A stretch of 53,846 nt of DNA from Anaerolineales bacterium UBA3001 (GCA_002346435.1 DDZT01000064.1:1-53846), one strand, 5' to 3'. Shown: positions 6,090-32,731, counted from the first letter of the stretch. Translations and numbers: made by a program. The notes: a model not told the origin generated them from the sequence alone.

Positions 6090-7370
6090 TTAGTCGGAGT
6101 CTTTCCCTAATTGTTCCAAAAACTCAAAATTGTTCTCTGATTGTCGTATTTGCTGCATTACTGCCTCAGTCGCAGCTCCCATATCCATGCCTGCTCCCGC
6201 TGGTGCTGGAGAAATCATCTGATTATACATACGACGCATCAACCAAACTCGTTGAGTAATATCAGGTCCTAATAGTAATTCTTCTCTCCTGGTAGATGAC
6301 CGATCTATGTCAAGGGCTGGAAACACTCTACGTTCCTGCAATCTTCTCGACAAATGTAATTCCATGTTCCCAGTGCCTTTAAACTCTTCATACACCATGT
6401 CATCCATCCTTGATCCTGTATCTACCAAGCAAGTAGCAACTATAGTCAGTGAACCTCCATCTTCTATATTTCTCGCTGCTCCAAAGAAACGTTTAGGAGG
6501 GTACAAAGCTGCTGGGTCAAGTCCACCCGACAGTGTTCGACCTGAAGGAGTAACTATCAAATTATAGGCTCGAGAAAGACGAGTAATAGAATCCAACAAA
6601 ATAGCAACGTCGCGACCGCATTCTACTAAACGTCTTGCACGCTCTAAGGCCATTTCAGCGACTTTTACGTGTGCAGTAACTGGTTCATCGAATGTACTAG
6701 CTACAACTTCAGCATCTACAGAACGGTCCATATCCGTTACCTCTTCCGGACGCTCTCCAATCAATGCAACCATTAAGTGAACTTGTGGGTACTTCAGTGA
6801 AATAGCATTCGCCAACTGTTTCATTACAGTCGTTTTACCGGCCTTAGGAGGCGAGACTATTAATCCACGCTGCCCCTTACCGATAGGAGCAACTAGATTG
6901 ATAAGTCTAGTTGCTAATGAATGTTGATCAGTTTCTAAGTCAAAACGTTCATCCGGAAAAATTGGTGTTAATGAGTGAAAAGTTGGACGCTTCTTGGCCT
7001 CTTCAGGATCCATCCCATTCACTGCTTCAACACGTATCAGACCAAAATATTTTTCGCTATCTTTCGGGGGTCTGACTTGTCCAATGACCATGTCTCCTGT
7101 ACGCATACCAAAACGTTTAATCTGTGACTGACTTACATAAACATCGTCTGCACTAGGAAGCAATTGTCCGGATCTCAAAAAACCTATGCCATCATCAACT
7201 ATTTCCAAGACACCTCCCCGTAAGGTATGGCCTCCTTTCTCAGCCTTAGCCCGCAAAAGGGCTAAGACTAAATCATCCTTTTTCATTCGCCTATACCCCG
7301 ATACTTCCAACTCCTTACATAGTTTTCGTAATTCTTCCAAGGTTTTCTTTTCTAGTTTAGCTATATCCAT
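6090..7370 (-). CDS. rho: Transcription termination factor Rho
   Basis: Rho N-terminal helix bundle (LEKKTLEELRKLCKELEV), CSD-like RNA-binding region, Walker A PPKAGKTT. Start set to ATG 7370 (MDIAKLEKK), which removes the overlap with glpX. Confidence 0.95.
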   Translation of the reverse strand: MDIAKLEKKTLEELRKLCKELEVSGYRRMKKDDLVLALLRAKAEKGGHTLRGGVLEIVDDGIGFLRSGQLLPSADDVYVSQSQIKRFGMRTGDMVIGQVRPPKDSEKYFGLIRVEAVNGMDPEEAKKRPTFHSLTPIFPDERFDLETDQHSLATRLINLVAPIGKGQRGLIVSPPKAGKTTVMKQLANAISLKYPQVHLMVALIGERPEEVTDMDRSVDAEVVASTFDEPVTAHVKVAEMALERARRLVECGRDVAILLDSITRLSRAYNLIVTPSGRTLSGGLDPAALYPPKRFFGAARNIEDGGSLTIVATCLVDTGSRMDDMVYEEFKGTGNMELHLSRRLQERRVFPALDIDRSSTRREELLLGPDITQRVWLMRRMYNQMISPAPAGAGMDMGAATEAVMQQIRQSENNFEFLEQLGKDSD

Positions 7371-24112: not shown

Positions 24113-26251
24113 ATGACCGACTCAAACGCTGCACAGATGATAATAGAACGCAAGCACGCTACTAGGACCATGTTGATTGGTATCTATTCAGGCTTAGTGG
24201 CCCTTTTCATATGCCTAATTGGTATGGTTGAAACATTTGGAGAAAGGGACATTATCGGCGGAATAATATCAATGGGACACACCATGTTAATCATAATTGC
24301 TATAGGTAGTGGTGCTATTGCAGTCAAAACACTTAGAGAAGATATGTCTACGCCCGGCGCAACAATAAATAAAACCTCATTCGTAGTTGAAATTTTTGTT
24401 GGCGTAACAGCTGGGCTCATAGTTGGCGCCACATTATCACTTTTCGTTTTTGCTACTGAGCTTGTTGATATGCGTTCAGTCCTAATCAACGTATCTCCTG
24501 GATTGCTTGAAATGCTAACATTACAAAAACCTGCGTCTCAGGTCATGGTTACCATGACGGTTTTGGGATCACTTCTAGGTGGCATAGGTGCAGCAATATT
24601 TAACATTGCTCCAAGAATAAGATTGCCTCTTGTGTTAGGTCTGACATCAATCGTATCGCTTGGCATGCTACGTGATATGCTAAAGATTGTCCTAACAAGA
24701 GAAGGATGGCCTAGTGTTTTGTTGAATTTCCTGGTAAAAAACCAAGGCTTGTCAATTGCAGGTGGAACAACTATATTTGCAACCACTGTTGCTCTAGTGA
24801 TAATATGGCCACATTTACCAGTAATATACGATAAAACAGTAAGAATAATAATAGCTTATGTCCCCAAGGTTTTACAATTCTCAGTCGGTATCATATTTGC
24901 AATTACACTAACAATGAGAGTATTCTGGTTTATTGCAATAAGCGATAAGGATTTACCTATTCTACCTGCATGTCAAACAGCCGATAATTCTCCCGATGTA
25001 GGCCTGGACAAATGTATAAGTATCGTCTCTAACGATATCAGCACAACAACCGATCTTCTAGGAACTAATCTGGCTACCCTAGTTAGTACTATTATTACAG
25101 TTTCTGAAATGCTGATTGGCACATTCATTCTCTTATGTGTCATCTTTGCTATTTGGAATATACGACAACGTGTAAACACAACAAACATAAAATCGACATT
25201 GGAAGACCCCAACAACGCATTACTCATAATCGCTAAGCGCAATATTTCTGCTTTCTTTGGTGTTTCATTGCTTGTATCACTTCCTATCTTATTAGGAGTA
25301 TTTCCAAGTGAAGTATTATTAAATGTTGGTCTCTACATGCTAATGGGATTTGGCTTAAACATAGTCGTTGGTATGGCTGGATTGTTAGACTTGGGTTATG
25401 TAGCATTTTTTGCTGTAGGAGCTTACTCTACAGCACTTCTGACATCACCTCGCGCCTCTATAGAATTAGGGATGTCATTCTGGGCCGCTCTTCCTATAGT
25501 TGTCCTGATAACAGGTGCAACAGGATTATTGGTAGGAGCACCGGTATTACGAATGCGCGGCGACTATTTAGCAATTGTTACTCTAGGATTTGGTGAAATA
25601 GCTCGATTTCTCTTCCTTTCTGATTGGTTTAAACCTTGGTTAGGTGGAGCACAAGGCATAATACTTATACCTCCAGTCAGTATAGGAAATATTCAACTGA
25701 TTGGGCCGCACAAGCTCTATTACCTAATAATTACAGGTTGCCTTATTGCACTTTTTATATCAGCACGTTTGCGTGAATCTCGTGTAGGAAGAGCATGGAT
25801 GGCAATGAGTGAAGATGAGCAAGTAGCTGAAACTATGGGTATTAACACTGTCTATTACAAATTGCTCGCGTTTGGATTGGGAGCAATGATAGCTAGTCTC
25901 AGTGGAGCAGTTTTTGCAGCAAAATTAGGCACCATTTTTCCGCACAGCTTTAACGTATTAGTTTCTATTACAGCCCTCAGTTTGCTAATTGTTGGAGGCA
26001 TAGGTAGCTTACCAGGCATAATAGTAGGAGCATTAGTACTAGTAGGACTTCCTGAACTACTACGCGAATTCACAGAATACCGTCTACTCATTTATGGTGC
26101 AGTCTTAATCTTCATGATGCTATCACGTCCGGAAGGTCTGATACCCAGAGTACGACAAACCAGAAAGCTTGATGACCAAGAACTCAACCAAGATGCCTGG
26201 CTGCACGATGAAACTGAAGCCAATAATGGCCCAAGTGTAACAGTAACATAG
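24113..26251 (+). CDS. livM: LivM-type ABC permease with ~380-aa N-terminal polytopic extension
   Basis: C-terminal ~330 aa carry the LivM pattern (GLNIVVGMAGLLDLGYVAFFAVGAY...LRMRGDYLAIVTLGFGEI). The N-terminal half is an additional multi-helix membrane region. Confidence 0.8.
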   Translation: MTDSNAAQMIIERKHATRTMLIGIYSGLVALFICLIGMVETFGERDIIGGIISMGHTMLIIIAIGSGAIAVKTLREDMSTPGATINKTSFVVEIFVGVTAGLIVGATLSLFVFATELVDMRSVLINVSPGLLEMLTLQKPASQVMVTMTVLGSLLGGIGAAIFNIAPRIRLPLVLGLTSIVSLGMLRDMLKIVLTREGWPSVLLNFLVKNQGLSIAGGTTIFATTVALVIIWPHLPVIYDKTVRIIIAYVPKVLQFSVGIIFAITLTMRVFWFIAISDKDLPILPACQTADNSPDVGLDKCISIVSNDISTTTDLLGTNLATLVSTIITVSEMLIGTFILLCVIFAIWNIRQRVNTTNIKSTLEDPNNALLIIAKRNISAFFGVSLLVSLPILLGVFPSEVLLNVGLYMLMGFGLNIVVGMAGLLDLGYVAFFAVGAYSTALLTSPRASIELGMSFWAALPIVVLITGATGLLVGAPVLRMRGDYLAIVTLGFGEIARFLFLSDWFKPWLGGAQGIILIPPVSIGNIQLIGPHKLYYLIITGCLIALFISARLRESRVGRAWMAMSEDEQVAETMGINTVYYKLLAFGLGAMIASLSGAVFAAKLGTIFPHSFNVLVSITALSLLIVGGIGSLPGIIVGALVLVGLPELLREFTEYRLLIYGAVLIFMMLSRPEGLIPRVRQTRKLDDQELNQDAWLHDETEANNGPSVTVT

Positions 26252-28812: not shown

Positions 28813-28857
28813 TTTACCAATAAATAGAGCTCTATAATTCGCGCGCATAACCCTGCG

Positions 28858-28866
28858 TGCTATAAT
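28858..28866 (+). promoter_or_regulatory. Candidate extended -10 promoter element (TGcTATAAT) for the NurA-HerA operon
   Basis: Exact TGnTATAAT match about 150 nt upstream of ATG 29017 in a 204-nt non-coding spacer. No convincing -35 element. Sequence match only. Confidence 0.3.
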
Positions 28867-29016
28867 CGCTTGAGTACATTTTTCTTGGTATATTTGGGCA
28901 CTCTAGTATTAATCAATAGCATTAACATTAGCAGTAGTAGATTGAAATCATTTGCGTAATTGTCAGATAAATTTGGTTCAGTCTAGCTGCGACCAAATAC
29001 ATAGGACGACATAGAA

Positions 29017-30207
29017 ATGGGACTAGAACTGAACAAACTGTCGAAACAAGTTAATAAGATGGGTACTACCGTAGCATCTCGTTCTGCAGAAATAGAAGCT
29101 CGACTCCCAAAGGCTCGTGCAACTCTAAAGAAGATTACCAACAACGACCCAGAACTTAAGAAAAAAATAAAAAGAGCACTGTCAATGCACTGGACTGGAG
29201 CCATCCCTACTTCTGAACCAGTACATGCGGTTTTTCCATGTCCAAAACACCCAAAACGAGCGAATATTGCGGCCGCAGATGGATCACAAATCTATCCAGA
29301 CCGACATGGTATAGCAATTTATTATCTCATTAACACAGGAAGCATTATATTTCGTCATGGCTTAGACGAAGCGCCAATATGTTCATCTTATCCTAGTTTA
29401 TTCTACGAAAATCATGACCTATACCCTAATGAAGTTCTAATCCCAAGTTCTTTAGTGAATGCGCGACGTGACATTACGGAATTGCGCGAATTGGCACAGA
29501 TTGCTGAAAAAGAGGTCAAGACAGCACCTACGTTACTAATGTTAGACAACGGATTGCTACTTTATCTAGGACTACAAACAGCGGAACACAGACAATCGGA
29601 GGAAATTTTAGGAGAATACCTGGAAACATTGAGTGCGATAGAGTCAACAAACGCTTGTATTGCGGGAGTAATAGATAGACCACGAGCTGCCAATGTTCTA
29701 CGTCTACTCAGATTATATGATATGGAAAATGACATGTTCGACACCAACGTATTGCGCTCACTAGGAGATTACTCGCAACTAACCGACCGAATGCTATTTG
29801 GTACACTACAGCCGGGAGAAAGAAGTGCTATTTTTGTAAATGCATCTCCACAAAATCTAGAAAGGTATCTACCCAAGGGTCAAAAAATAGTGTTTTACTA
29901 CGTTAATGCTGGTACCAGAGAGCAACCTGTAATCCTAAGAGTGGAAATCCCAGAATGGGTCGCTAATCAACCTGAACAACTGTCGCTAACACACGCAGGT
30001 GTAGTAGAGCAGGCTCGTTTTGGTGATGGATTTCCATATGTACTTATGCGATCACACGAACTTGCTGTCGTATCCTGGACAGAACGTGGGCATCTTGATG
30101 AGATGATTGGTAGCAGCCTGCACCGCAGTGGACTTTCCGCTGTTGTATCTAGAAAAGCACAGGGGAAACAATGGACTAATAGTGCTAAACGGAGGTATGG
30201 AAAATGA
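29017..30207 (+). CDS. NurA-domain nuclease-like protein
   Basis: 396 aa. NIAAADGSQIYPDRH (NurA DGS catalytic-aspartate motif, around residue 88), LLMLDNGLL, and C-terminal GDGFPYVLMRSHELAVVS resembling the NurA C-terminal Pxx(L)xxAH/D motif. An alternative start at Met15 is possible. Confidence 0.7.
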   Translation: MGLELNKLSKQVNKMGTTVASRSAEIEARLPKARATLKKITNNDPELKKKIKRALSMHWTGAIPTSEPVHAVFPCPKHPKRANIAAADGSQIYPDRHGIAIYYLINTGSIIFRHGLDEAPICSSYPSLFYENHDLYPNEVLIPSSLVNARRDITELRELAQIAEKEVKTAPTLLMLDNGLLLYLGLQTAEHRQSEEILGEYLETLSAIESTNACIAGVIDRPRAANVLRLLRLYDMENDMFDTNVLRSLGDYSQLTDRMLFGTLQPGERSAIFVNASPQNLERYLPKGQKIVFYYVNAGTREQPVILRVEIPEWVANQPEQLSLTHAGVVEQARFGDGFPYVLMRSHELAVVSWTERGHLDEMIGSSLHRSGLSAVVSRKAQGKQWTNSAKRRYGK

Positions 30208-30830
30208 GTGATGTCAATTCTGAAGAAAAAACAAATTCATCAATCCCAATTGGTAGAATGTTGCGTAGTGACACCACAGGTTTTACATTCGGATGCTTGC
30301 TACCAGAGCCAGAAGTCCCACTATTTGGAGACTTCGTCAAAGCTCCTGCACAACAAGGGTTGACCGAAATCATCGGAATAATACATAATATTGTTATAGA
30401 AGATGATTTGTTTGTGCGGCAGCTTATAGCCGCTCCTGAACTACCGGAAGCTTATATTCAAGATCAACGCAAAAATAGGCAAATACCCATAGAGGTTAGT
30501 GTTCTATCAGTCGGATATTCATCTGAAAACAATATCATACAAGGCCTGCCACCCCAACCGCCAGTTACCTTAGACTATATTAAGCGCTGCTCACTCAGTG
30601 ATGTAATCGATTTTACAAATGTGCAAGATTATCTTGCACTAATACTAAACTCCAAGGAAACACCTGTGGAAGAGCTAATTGGAGCAGCTTTACAACGTGC
30701 ATCAAAAGCACGACCTATTGAAGATCGGGAACTTTTCTTGTTACAGGCTGGAAAAGAGCTAGCTAGATTACTTTCGGATGACCTTTCCAAGCTCAACTCG
30801 ATATTGCGTCGTATACAGGTGAACATATGA
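30204..30830 (+). CDS. Hypothetical 208-aa protein, translationally coupled between the NurA-like and HerA-like genes
   Basis: ATGA stop/start overlaps at both ends (30204-30207, 30827-30830). GGAGG lies 8 nt upstream of its ATG. No catalytic motif recognised. The N-terminal part is weakly reminiscent of a HAS-type beta-barrel; the C-terminus looks helical. Confidence 0.6.
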   Translation: MSDVNSEEKTNSSIPIGRMLRSDTTGFTFGCLLPEPEVPLFGDFVKAPAQQGLTEIIGIIHNIVIEDDLFVRQLIAAPELPEAYIQDQRKNRQIPIEVSVLSVGYSSENNIIQGLPPQPPVTLDYIKRCSLSDVIDFTNVQDYLALILNSKETPVEELIGAALQRASKARPIEDRELFLLQAGKELARLLSDDLSKLNSILRRIQVNI

Positions 30831-32518
30831 AACCAGAATCAGAACTTGAAAGAATTTTTCCTGACAATCAAGGCAATTCAGGCACTCCAGGCATACGAAT
30901 TGGTACTGTAGTTGGAGGTTCATTATCTAAGGGCCTTGTTGTCAAATTAGATGCTGGTGAACTACCAGGCAGTATGATTGAACAGCTAGCTGTAGGACGC
31001 TACGTGGTAGTACAAGGTTTAACTGAACGTCGCTTTTTCTGCATAGTAACCGATGTTGCACTCGAACACACTAATCCTTATGTCGAATCCAATCCTCCTG
31101 AAACAACAGATAGTATTATGGCCGAGGTATACCGCAGCACATTAGCATACGGTAAAGCTAACGTGGCTCCCATGCTTGTACTAGAACGCGATTCGGAGGA
31201 ACCAAAACCAGTCAAAACTATACCCGCTCATTTTTCAGTCGTTGTGCAAGCAAACGAAGAAGACGTGGAACAAGTTTTTGGAAAAGCAGATGGAGACCAT
31301 TTCTATATAGGCAATCCAATAGAAATGGACCAGGTGCCTATTAACGTCAATCTTGATAGATTCATAGAACGTTCATCTGGAGTATTTGGTAAAAGCGGTA
31401 CTGGTAAATCCTTCATAACACGCACATTATTGTCGGGAATAGTCAAGTCGGGTAAAGCATCATGTCTTATTTTCGATATGCACAATGATTATGGTTGGGC
31501 TATCAAAAATGAACATGGTAGAGAATATAAAGGTCTACAGCAACTGTTTGATGCAAATCGTGTAAATGTCATTACACTAGATCCAGAAACCTCGCAAGCA
31601 AGAGGCAACAGACACGATGGCGCATTACAAATTCCTTACGATGCTATTGAGCCGGAAGACATAGCCATGCTAGCCGGTGTGCTAACACTAAGCGAAGTCC
31701 AAGTAAATGCGTTATATTTCTTGCGAAGACGTCTAGGACGTAAGTGGTTACGCAAATTACTTTCCAACGATGAAAATGACCAGTCCGAGCTTGATGAATT
31801 CGTGCAACAGGGAGATTTAATAAAAGGTACTCTAGGAGCCATTCAACGCAAATTTGAGATTTTCAGACGAATGGGATTCCTCCAAACAAATGTCAGTGAG
31901 GATCTTGTTGAAACACTGTTTCAAAAACTTAACTCCGGTATCAGTATAGTGCTTGAATTTGGTATATACGGAGATAGTCTGCCGGCTTATATGTTTGTTG
32001 CAAATTATCTAACACGCAGAATTCATCATCGCTATGTTGCAACAAAAAACAAAGCATTTGGGAACCAGGGAGATGAACCAAATCCACTTATGATTGTCAT
32101 AGAAGAAGCTCACAAGTTCCTAGACCCCGAGATATCTCAGCACACTATTTTTGGAACCATAGCTCGTGAGCTAAGAAAATACAATGTAACACTTCTAGTA
32201 GTGGATCAACGACCAAGTGGTATAGATGATGAGGTAATGAGTCAGATCGGTACACGTGTAACATGTTTGTTAGACAATGAATCAGATATCCGAGCTGTAT
32301 TTTCTGGAGTAAGTGGAGCAAGTGCTCTACGTGAAGTACTTGCCCGATTAGACACACAACAACAGGCACTTATAATGGGTCATGCTGTTCCAATGCCAGT
32401 AGTCATTCGGACAAGGGACTACGGGCCCGAATTGTATGAAGAGATAAACCAACAGACGTTTCAGTTACAATCTGATGCAGAAACAGTAGCGCAGGCTAAA
32501 GACGATTTATTTGGATAA
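30827..32518 (+). CDS. HerA-like (FtsK/HerA-class) hexameric ATPase/translocase
   Basis: 563 aa. N-terminal barrel-like IRIGTVVGGSL...VGRYVVVQG, Walker A GKSGTGKSF (around residues 188-196), Walker B LMIVIEEAHKF, LLVVDQRPSGID motif typical of HerA. Confidence 0.8.
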   Translation: MKPESELERIFPDNQGNSGTPGIRIGTVVGGSLSKGLVVKLDAGELPGSMIEQLAVGRYVVVQGLTERRFFCIVTDVALEHTNPYVESNPPETTDSIMAEVYRSTLAYGKANVAPMLVLERDSEEPKPVKTIPAHFSVVVQANEEDVEQVFGKADGDHFYIGNPIEMDQVPINVNLDRFIERSSGVFGKSGTGKSFITRTLLSGIVKSGKASCLIFDMHNDYGWAIKNEHGREYKGLQQLFDANRVNVITLDPETSQARGNRHDGALQIPYDAIEPEDIAMLAGVLTLSEVQVNALYFLRRRLGRKWLRKLLSNDENDQSELDEFVQQGDLIKGTLGAIQRKFEIFRRMGFLQTNVSEDLVETLFQKLNSGISIVLEFGIYGDSLPAYMFVANYLTRRIHHRYVATKNKAFGNQGDEPNPLMIVIEEAHKFLDPEISQHTIFGTIARELRKYNVTLLVVDQRPSGIDDEVMSQIGTRVTCLLDNESDIRAVFSGVSGASALREVLARLDTQQQALIMGHAVPMPVVIRTRDYGPELYEEINQQTFQLQSDAETVAQAKDDLFG

Positions 32519-32668
32519 TGAAACAACTATGCTAAATTGATCCTACTTATTTGTACAGTATAAACAACACATAAACTCCAATGCACAGTTATGTGCTTAC
32601 ACAATCTGTATAACTTGTATTTGATATCACATCACTTGCAAATCCTTATCAATGCTGAAGTCAGACAA

Positions 32669-32700
32669 CAGAAAAGTCCCCTGATCAGGGGACTTTTCTG
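32669..32700. terminator. Bidirectional intrinsic terminator shared by the HerA-like gene and acnA
   Basis: Perfect 32-nt palindrome CAGAAAAGTCCCCTGATCAGGGGACTTTTCTG. The GC core stem is GTCCCCT/AGGGGAC with loop GATC, flanked by an A-tract and a T-tract, so a U-run follows the hairpin on either strand. Confidence 0.8.
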
Positions 32701-32731
32701 TTGTTCCAATAAATGAATAGTTTTGTTATTT

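Follow-up and report, generated by a model that had tools for sequence, protein, structure and literature searches.

NurA, a nuclease, and HerA, an ATPase, jointly constitute the textbook machine of archaeal DNA end resection. Even for the archaea, this resection model has been questioned (PMC12977600). In Thermus, the overlapping genes nurA and hepA lie among metabolic genes with no adjacent gene for Mre11 or Rad50, and Oceanithermus carries SbcCD downstream (PMC5448004). One report notes a CRISPR-linked nurA-csm6-herA cluster in Pyrobaculum that adjoins CRISPR arrays and has csm6, the gene of a CRISPR ancillary protein, inserted between nurA and herA (PMC12977600). The locus described here belongs to Anaerolineales bacterium UBA3001 (GCA_002346435.1) and was analyzed within a stretch of 53,846 nucleotides (DDZT01000064.1:1-53846), referred to as the window. 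Three co-directional open reading frames (ORFs) occupy positions 29017 to 32518: ORF1, assigned by sequence to nurA; ORF3, assigned likewise to herA; and between them ORF2, whose product is called X. An initial annotation of the same DNA described the trio as embedded between metabolic genes. This context is not unusual, because the NurA-HerA pairs of Thermus ordinarily occupy such a setting (PMC5448004).

The trio is best explained, with a probability of about 0.65, as a DNA-end-processing machine of the NurA-HerA type that is evolutionarily linked to Mre11-Rad50 and takes a three-subunit form specific to Chloroflexota. The trio does not amount to a new kind of system, and nothing indicates a new defence system. 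Its NurA and HerA are established proteins, already annotated in related metagenome-assembled genomes; the family of the middle gene is so far unnamed. A full-text literature search, in which Iyer et al. 2004 was not covered, returned no third gene in bacterial nurA-herA operons and no free-standing HAS-barrel partner, and no account of the middle gene was found, in agreement with the earlier remark that the architecture was not recognized as a described system. From the three-component nuclease-translocase proposed at that stage, the NurA, the HerA, and a conserved X are retained, and the self-contained character and the defence framing are given up.

NurA and HerA

ORF1 matches the Pfam family NurA (PF09376) with 81.2 bits at a cutoff of 21 (E value of 1.1e-22), residues 83 to 352 being aligned with positions 2 to 254 of the 254-position profile. 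A total of 804 homologues were found, and relatives are named "DNA double-strand break repair nuclease NurA" by NCBI. Both motifs cited in the initial annotation, IAAADGS and FPYVLMRSHELA, are present, and the protein is identified from its sequence as a NurA-family nuclease. D88, E155, D177, H326, and E348 do not vary across 13 divergent NurA homologues, and H347 is nearly invariant among them; a further alignment, made with 28 closer homologues, has an invariant H347 and a nearly invariant H326.

No solved NurA matched ORF1 by sequence among the PDB chains, with either the single sequence or the family profile, and the structure considered here is therefore a predicted one. The AlphaFold2 model (predicted local distance difference test [pLDDT] of 86.5) has an RNase H-like or PIWI-like fold, with Endonuclease V and the PIWI domain of Argonaute as its best fold neighbours in the PDB. 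The same structural neighbours have been reported for the NurA of P. furiosus, in which the catalytic residues are D51, E105, D126, and H411 (PMC3300031). In the predicted model of ORF1, D88 lies in the strand formed by residues 82 to 92, E155 in the helix of residues 144 to 166, and D177 at the end of the strand of residues 172 to 177. This placement of the D/E/D/H residues fits an RNase H-like site, as judged from the secondary-structure elements of the model. The protein further has a basic helical hairpin at its N terminus (residues 5 to 56) and a basic C-terminal tail with an isoelectric point (pI) of 12.

ORF3 matches PF01935 (DUF87) with 111.4 bits at a cutoff of 23.2 (E value of 8.7e-32) and the HerA models of PADLOC with E values down to 7.7e-37. 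The Walker A motif GKSGTGKSF (residues 188 to 196), the Walker B motif IVIEEAH, and the VVDQRPS motif are in place, and no variation occurs among 12 homologues in the catalytic residues of either Walker motif or in the DQRPS core. As claimed at the outset, ORF3 is by sequence a HerA-type ring ATPase or translocase of the FtsK-HerA superfamily. The barrel-like segment proposed for its N terminus is likewise borne out: with the HerA family profile, residues 55 to 223 of ORF3 align with residues 24 to 182 of the HerA from Sulfolobus (E value of 3e-5), and the protein therefore has an N-terminal HAS-barrel of its own. Precomputed Pfam annotations list a weak HAS-barrel match in the homologous HerAs of two related loci, L052 and L054. 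Gene fission of HerA as the source of the middle gene was considered and ruled out, since HerA retains its own barrel.

The sequence matches of HerA also bear on a second reading of the trio, namely, an antiphage or foreign-DNA interference module in which the HerA hexamer scaffolds a NurA effector, with X serving as sensor or regulator, on the pattern of SIR2-HerA or DUF4297-HerA. The closest PDB sequence to the window HerA is 8wiv, the HerA of the SIR2-HerA defence system (E value of 5e-25, compared to 1.6e-18 for 4d2i), the PADLOC matches given above are strong, and the top NCBIfam model is HerA_antiphage. Against this stands the level of the NCBIfam scores: the score is 98 bits for HerA_antiphage and a nearly equal 90 bits for HerA_Thermprot, a model of archaeal repair HerA, each roughly 10-fold below a cutoff of 800. 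Because the antiphage and archaeal repair models score alike and far below their cutoffs, the HerA matches cannot separate repair from defence, and the window HerA is, on its sequence, a distinct subfamily that hidden Markov models place in neither class. The HerA of D. radiodurans was absent from the phmmer and profile matches of the window HerA at E values of ≤1e-3.

The middle protein

ORF2 has no match above threshold to any family in Pfam, NCBIfam, or PADLOC, and sequence searches of PDB chains with the single sequence and with a profile gave nothing relevant. Its homologues number 811 in a database clustered at 90%, a count similar to the 804 of NurA. At 50% identity, the family comprises 717 clusters, of which 413 have E values below 1e-10; nearly all members are about 200 amino acids long, and they are annotated throughout as "hypothetical protein." Among close homologues, 55 columns do not vary, and the signature motif LPPQPP is part of them. 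A repeated homology search with a divergent ORF2 profile again listed only Anaerolineae-type members.

The AlphaFold2 model of ORF2 (pLDDT of 78; predicted template modeling score of 0.73) consists of an N-terminal β-barrel spanning approximately residues 17 to 128 and a C-terminal helical bundle of residues 131 to 207. The best 50 PDB matches of this model are all HerA chains (E values of 1e-4 to 3e-3), with the barrel placed on the N-terminal regions of HerA over ∼135 aligned columns at a Foldseek probability of 1.00. The matched chains include TdpA, the HerAs of the SIR2-HerA and DUF4297-HerA systems, and those of Sulfolobus, Deinococcus, and Thermococcus. HAS-barrels are known as N-terminal domains in HerA and in the α and β subunits of F1-ATPase. 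The Pfam family of this domain, PF09378, is also the only one to recur among divergent ORF2 members, appearing in 8 of the 19 that were scanned singly, with a best E value of 2.2e-4 and below threshold. As modeled, ORF2 is a free-standing HAS-barrel-like protein, and its former description as an "orphan" of unknown family is superseded by the fold and by these weak Pfam matches.

Conservation of gene order in Chloroflexota

A genome scan with two exact peptide patterns, covering one genome per species, yielded 43 loci, all of them in Chloroflexota, from the class Anaerolineae and allied groups; divergent loci were reached through exact-protein look-ups. NurA lies directly upstream of the ORF2 homologue in 37 of 42 evaluable species-level loci, and HerA lies downstream of it in 34 of 36. 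The junction between nurA and X is tight in all 37 loci, compared to the junction between X and herA, which carries insertions in 12 of 34. The arrangement is retained in members of 24 to 33% identity (28 to 32% for L049 and L052). The flanking metabolic genes are common to the closest relatives only; beyond these the flanks vary, and the module is therefore conserved while its surroundings change. Because of the 811 homologues, a ratio of nonsynonymous to synonymous substitutions (dN/dS) of ∼0.1, and the conserved synteny, the middle gene is not lineage-specific filler or a miscalled ORF, and the claim that it is a real third component holds.

The most frequent insertion between the ORF2 homologue and herA is a PDDEXK_3 gene (PF13366; GxxExxY type; E value of ∼1e-40) encoding ∼134 to 148 amino acids, found in ∼12 species-level loci (Table 1). 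This gene may belong to the module as a fourth component, or it may be selfish and passed on vertically since its insertion. In L027, the same position holds a nucleotidyltransferase-like gene together with a toxin-antitoxin pair of MntA (a Polβ nucleotidyltransferase) and HepT (L027:8683-10505), and a nucleotidyltransferase-like gene also occurs there in L029 and L040. The stretch L029:8604-16549 contains NurA and the ORF2 homologue with no herA within 8 kb downstream; instead, the nucleotidyltransferase-like gene follows, together with a gene whose sequence reads as a CxxxCxxC motif of the radical S-adenosylmethionine type. In L054 (10602-11366) and L055 (7378-8097), which are genomes of Candidatus Brachytrichaceae and of the Candidatus Roseilinea type, a gene for a DUF8196 protein (254 amino acids; coiled-coil) separates the ORF2 homologue from herA. 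These two loci have no adjacent NurA; upstream they carry a divergent flavin adenine dinucleotide oxidoreductase, as does L035. The divergent ORF2 member of L051 (3755-6421) directly follows an AAA_15/AAA_21 ATPase and DUF4276 pair, with no NurA or HerA nearby; no other ORF2 context seen here hints at defence.

Linkage to Mre11, Rad50, and AlkZ

Genes for Mre11-like proteins, Rad50-like proteins with a zinc hook, or both follow the trio in the same direction in L011 to L014, L016, L019, L022, and L047. In L049 and L050, the genes overlap in the order nurA-X-herA-rad50, with rad50 overlapping herA, and L052 has a packed operon of five overlapping genes, nurA-X-herA-mre11-rad50. Trios followed by Mre11- and/or Rad50-like genes thus occur in at least three divergent lineages. 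An AlkZ-like DNA glycosylase gene (PF06224; E value of 1e-62; QLD motif) stands between herA and mre11 in L011, L013, L019, and L022, the order being nurA-X-herA-alkZ-mre11-rad50 in L011, L019, and L022. In L011, it overlaps the herA stop codon, and in L023, it follows herA at a locus that ends before any mre11. These neighbours suggest a wider repair gene cluster around the trio, which may include interstrand-crosslink repair.

The initial annotation had described a self-contained system without Mre11-Rad50. This description is weakened because the trio adjoins Mre11- and Rad50-like genes in divergent relatives, a finding that the same annotation had named in advance as refuting it: the absence of both genes stands as a feature of the window and not as a trait of the system, and an independence from Mre11-Rad50 is no longer tenable. 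The linkage holds for the family, not for the window locus.

The same neighbours bear on a reading of the module as a device for DNA transfer or chromosome handling through FtsK/HerA-type pumping, as in the transjugation of Thermus, rather than for break repair. HerA is one of the FtsK-HerA pumping ATPases, Thermus transjugation involves HerA-like and NurA-like proteins (PMC5448004), and the CedD and VirB4 models match HerA weakly. Those matches, however, are weaker than the HerA matches and far below the cutoffs, none of the loci examined has genes for conjugation, a pilus, or membrane components next to the trio, and the recurrent neighbours are Mre11, Rad50, and AlkZ, which makes this role highly improbable.

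For the foreign-DNA role introduced above with HerA, the gene neighbourhoods also supply arguments in both directions. Mobile-type genes gather at the X-herA junction (the MntA/HepT pair, nucleotidyltransferases, and PDDEXK_3), one X without NurA or HerA adjoins the AAA_15 and DUF4276 pair, and archaeal HerA-NurA has been proposed to degrade foreign double-stranded DNA (dsDNA), in a report that also notes the CRISPR-linked nurA-csm6-herA cluster (PMC12977600). On the other side, the genes repeatedly linked to the trio encode Mre11, Rad50, and a DNA glycosylase rather than defence functions, and NurA and X have no PADLOC match. The neighbours at the loci examined are housekeeping genes that vary by lineage, with no defence island visible; flanks of the trio are common to close relatives, although small toxin-antitoxin and nuclease genes do insert at the X-herA junction. 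The G+C content is uniform, and the 33 pattern matches in IMG/VR yielded no confirmed viral relative. A viral origin of the module was rejected on that last result. The earlier suggestion of a defence module in a defence island thus finds no positive support from PADLOC, neighbours, G+C content, or IMG/VR. Because the physiological role of NurA-HerA is debated, a foreign-DNA role is kept as a rival, although an unlikely one.

Proposed mechanism

As a DNA-end-processing machine, the trio would work by homology to the solved NurA-HerA complexes. The HerA ring translocase would feed duplex DNA through its channel to NurA, a NurA dimer would dock on the HAS-barrel face of the HerA hexamer in a 2:6 arrangement, and NurA would cut the DNA that HerA delivers. 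X would join the assembly at the interface of NurA and the HerA barrel, where it could bridge nuclease and motor as an adaptor or additional ring, or mimic the HerA barrel and so hold or gate the basic NurA. Such an interaction of X with NurA and HerA, and its stoichiometry, are proposed by analogy, and the module may serve in recombinational repair or in the degradation of linear DNA.

X is probably an accessory subunit at this interface. It is placed there because it has the fold and the charge of the docking surface and because its gene is probably coupled in translation to both neighbours, with the tighter junction at nurA. In D. radiodurans, the contact is ionic, between a basic NurA and an acidic HAS-barrel face of HerA (PMC9960219). 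The window NurA has a pI of 8.8, compared to 4.7 for both ORF2 and residues 1 to 160 of HerA, a charge pattern that fits the D. radiodurans interface by analogy. The start/stop overlaps on both sides of X, read from the sequence, suggest translational coupling.

A more specific version holds that X arose from HerA's docking barrel as a separate copy, that it either stacks as one more ring with the NurA dimer on one side and the HerA hexamer on the other or serves as a decoy gating the access of NurA to HerA, and that it sets the choice between duplex shredding and resection of one strand. This is offered as a tentative possibility. If it is true, X as a barrel subunit or decoy would represent a new regulatory principle for NurA-HerA machines and might account for the poor in vitro behaviour of the two-subunit bacterial complexes.

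Several observations weigh against the end-processing machine as a three-subunit, Mre11-Rad50-linked device. Neither mre11 nor rad50 occurs anywhere in the 53.8-kb window. X and HerA are found without an adjacent NurA in L035, L036, L042, L043, and L054, NurA and X without HerA in L029 and L048 (Herpetosiphonaceae), and X by itself in L031, L051, and L053. The identities of NurA, X, and HerA co-vary (r of 0.95 to 0.99), which is weak evidence and no proof of interaction because it is expected of genes in one genome, and the counts of loci apply to genomes reached by the two exact peptide patterns. With respect to the barrel, ORF2 scores 13.4 bits with PF09378, below the gathering score of 25.2 (E value of 0.088), and hhalign of the ORF2 family with the HerA family gives a nonsignificant E value of 0.07; in favour of the barrel, both matches fall on one common hairpin of ORF2. 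On account of the hhalign result, neither sequence-proven homology to HerA nor a recent HerA duplication is claimed for ORF2. As for function, the bacterial role is disputed, and deletion in Deinococcus improves damage tolerance (PMC9960219). In a 2026 study, HerA-NurA from Thermococcus shreds both strands and may destroy foreign dsDNA (PMC12977600).

The orphan occurrences of X and its subthreshold similarity to HAS-barrels could also mean that X is a conserved operon passenger with its own function and that its resemblance to the HerA barrel reflects convergence of folds, small β-barrels being common. This is decidedly improbable: the position of X between nurA and herA is retained down to 28% identity, the overlaps on both sides speak for translational coupling, the best 50 fold matches contain no barrel family other than HerA, and the HAS-barrel is the sole Pfam family that recurs among the divergent members of X.

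With X as a subunit of the end-processing machine, the locus represents a phylum-wide lineage of NurA-HerA operons with an extra conserved and coupled subunit that resembles the docking surface of NurA, and X offers a concrete handle on the control of nuclease-motor coupling. As an accessory subunit that is both conserved and widespread, in a machine whose mechanism is debated, it would be a testable lead. Its unnamed family of hundreds of clusters is open to naming and to a testable function.

Organization of the locus and noncoding elements

The features of the locus and of the genes recurring in its relatives are listed in Table 1. The three co-directional ORFs, the spacer upstream of them, and the sequence GGAGG (30191-30195, 8 nucleotides 5' of the ORF2 start codon) agree with the initial annotation apart from small coordinate corrections. 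ATGA stop/start overlaps join ORF1 to ORF2 (30204-30207) and ORF2 to ORF3 (30827-30830), and the same overlapping junctions are found again in the relatives L001 and L044. The dN/dS values against close relatives, 0.08 to 0.14 for the three genes and 0.10 to 0.14 for ORF2, point to purifying selection on all of them. The G+C content lies between 0.40 and 0.42.

Table 1. Coordinates of the locus features in the window and of accessory genes in related loci
Feature	Coordinates	Strand	Remarks
ORF1, nurA	29017-30207	+	396 aa
ORF2, middle gene (X)	30204-30830	+	208 aa
ORF3, herA	30827-32518	+	563 aa
Upstream spacer, putative promoter/leader	28813-29016	+	204 nt; read from the sequence
Hairpin, likely bidirectional terminator	32665-32704	.	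40-nt palindrome, 18-bp stem, 4-nt loop
PDDEXK_3 insertion	L009, L012-L017, L022, L023, L026, L028 (e.g., L016:8626-9027, L022:8612-9055)		One Anaerolineales subclade
AlkZ-like gene	L011:4979-6190, L013:7614-8846, L019:11722-12936, L022:11510-12733, L023:11498-12721		

The spacer separates nurA from an ornithine-cyclodeaminase-like gene and is well conserved in relatives with 83 to 91% NurA identity. It contains two TATAAT-like elements, one at 28833-28838 and an extended −10-like element, TGCTATAAT, at 28858-28866; the latter is the TGcTATAAT element of the initial annotation and is kept in all four readable close relatives. A generic promoter consensus scan of the spacer gave no signal above chance, and no Rfam family matched it. 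Its function as a promoter or leader is putative. The 5' leader also has a short inverted repeat, TTTGGT...ACCAAA, that immediately precedes the start codon; it was dropped as a candidate, as relatives are without compensatory change. In L001, the interval between the cyclodeaminase-like gene and nurA (∼6300-6810) is partly a run of N, so that the longer spacer there is uninformative.

Downstream, a hairpin lies between herA and a convergent aconitase gene and corresponds to the perfect palindrome annotated earlier. RNA folding gives it −31.7 kcal/mol (z score of −6.9; 0 of 200 shuffled sequences equally stable), and from its sequence it is likely a bidirectional terminator. Lacking a clean T-run, it was missed by a simple terminator scan, and it was the sole match, below threshold, to Rfam. 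Farther upstream, at 24113-26251, the window contains a gene for a branched-chain amino acid ATP-binding cassette permease with an unusually long product of 712 amino acids, in which a long hydrophobic N-terminal extension precedes the recognizable permease-type region; the product has the same length in L044 and L045.

Comparison with known systems

The HerA-scaffolded antiphage systems (SIR2-HerA or Nezha, DUF4297-HerA, and TdpAB) resemble the window trio in that the barrel face of a HerA hexamer binds the partner protein, that the window HerA is nearest to 8wiv, and that the predicted fold of X matches TdpA and the HerAs of these systems. In contrast to them, ORF1 and ORF2 include no SIR2, DUF4297, or TdpB-like effector, Pfam giving neither a SIR2 nor a DUF4297 match for them, and the context is one of housekeeping genes with linkage to repair genes. 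The nurA-csm6-herA cluster of Pyrobaculum is the only precedent found for a gene between nurA and herA, and its inserted gene is unrelated to X. Unlike the Csm6 of that cluster, X has no Pfam match to Csm6-type domains and is predicted to fold as a HAS-barrel with helices, and no CRISPR context was seen with it.

With the HAS-barrel domain PF09378, ORF2 shares the predicted fold of the HerA N-terminal regions. It differs from the barrel of HerA in being free-standing without an ATPase domain, in its own C-terminal helical bundle and LPPQPP motif, and in its subthreshold score.

The tandem genes of Deinococcus and Thermus (NurA-HerA of D. radiodurans and NurA-HepA of Thermus) differ from the window in that no gene like the 208-amino-acid one between nurA and herA has been reported there, and the sequences are very distant. 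They agree with it in having nurA before herA with a stop/start overlap, in the lack, seen in Thermus, of mre11 and rad50 beside a pair set among metabolic genes, and in combining a basic NurA with an acidic HerA N terminus, the NurA dimer of D. radiodurans sitting on the barrel of the HerA hexamer (PMC9960219). Compared to the archaeal herA-mre11-rad50-nurA operon, the gene order is different, X is additional, the window is without mre11 and rad50, and the window HerA is far below the NCBIfam equivalog cutoffs of archaeal repair HerA. The relatives of the window locus (L052, L011, L019, and L022) nevertheless carry the same four functions together as that archaeal operon does, and L049 combines nurA, X, and herA with rad50.

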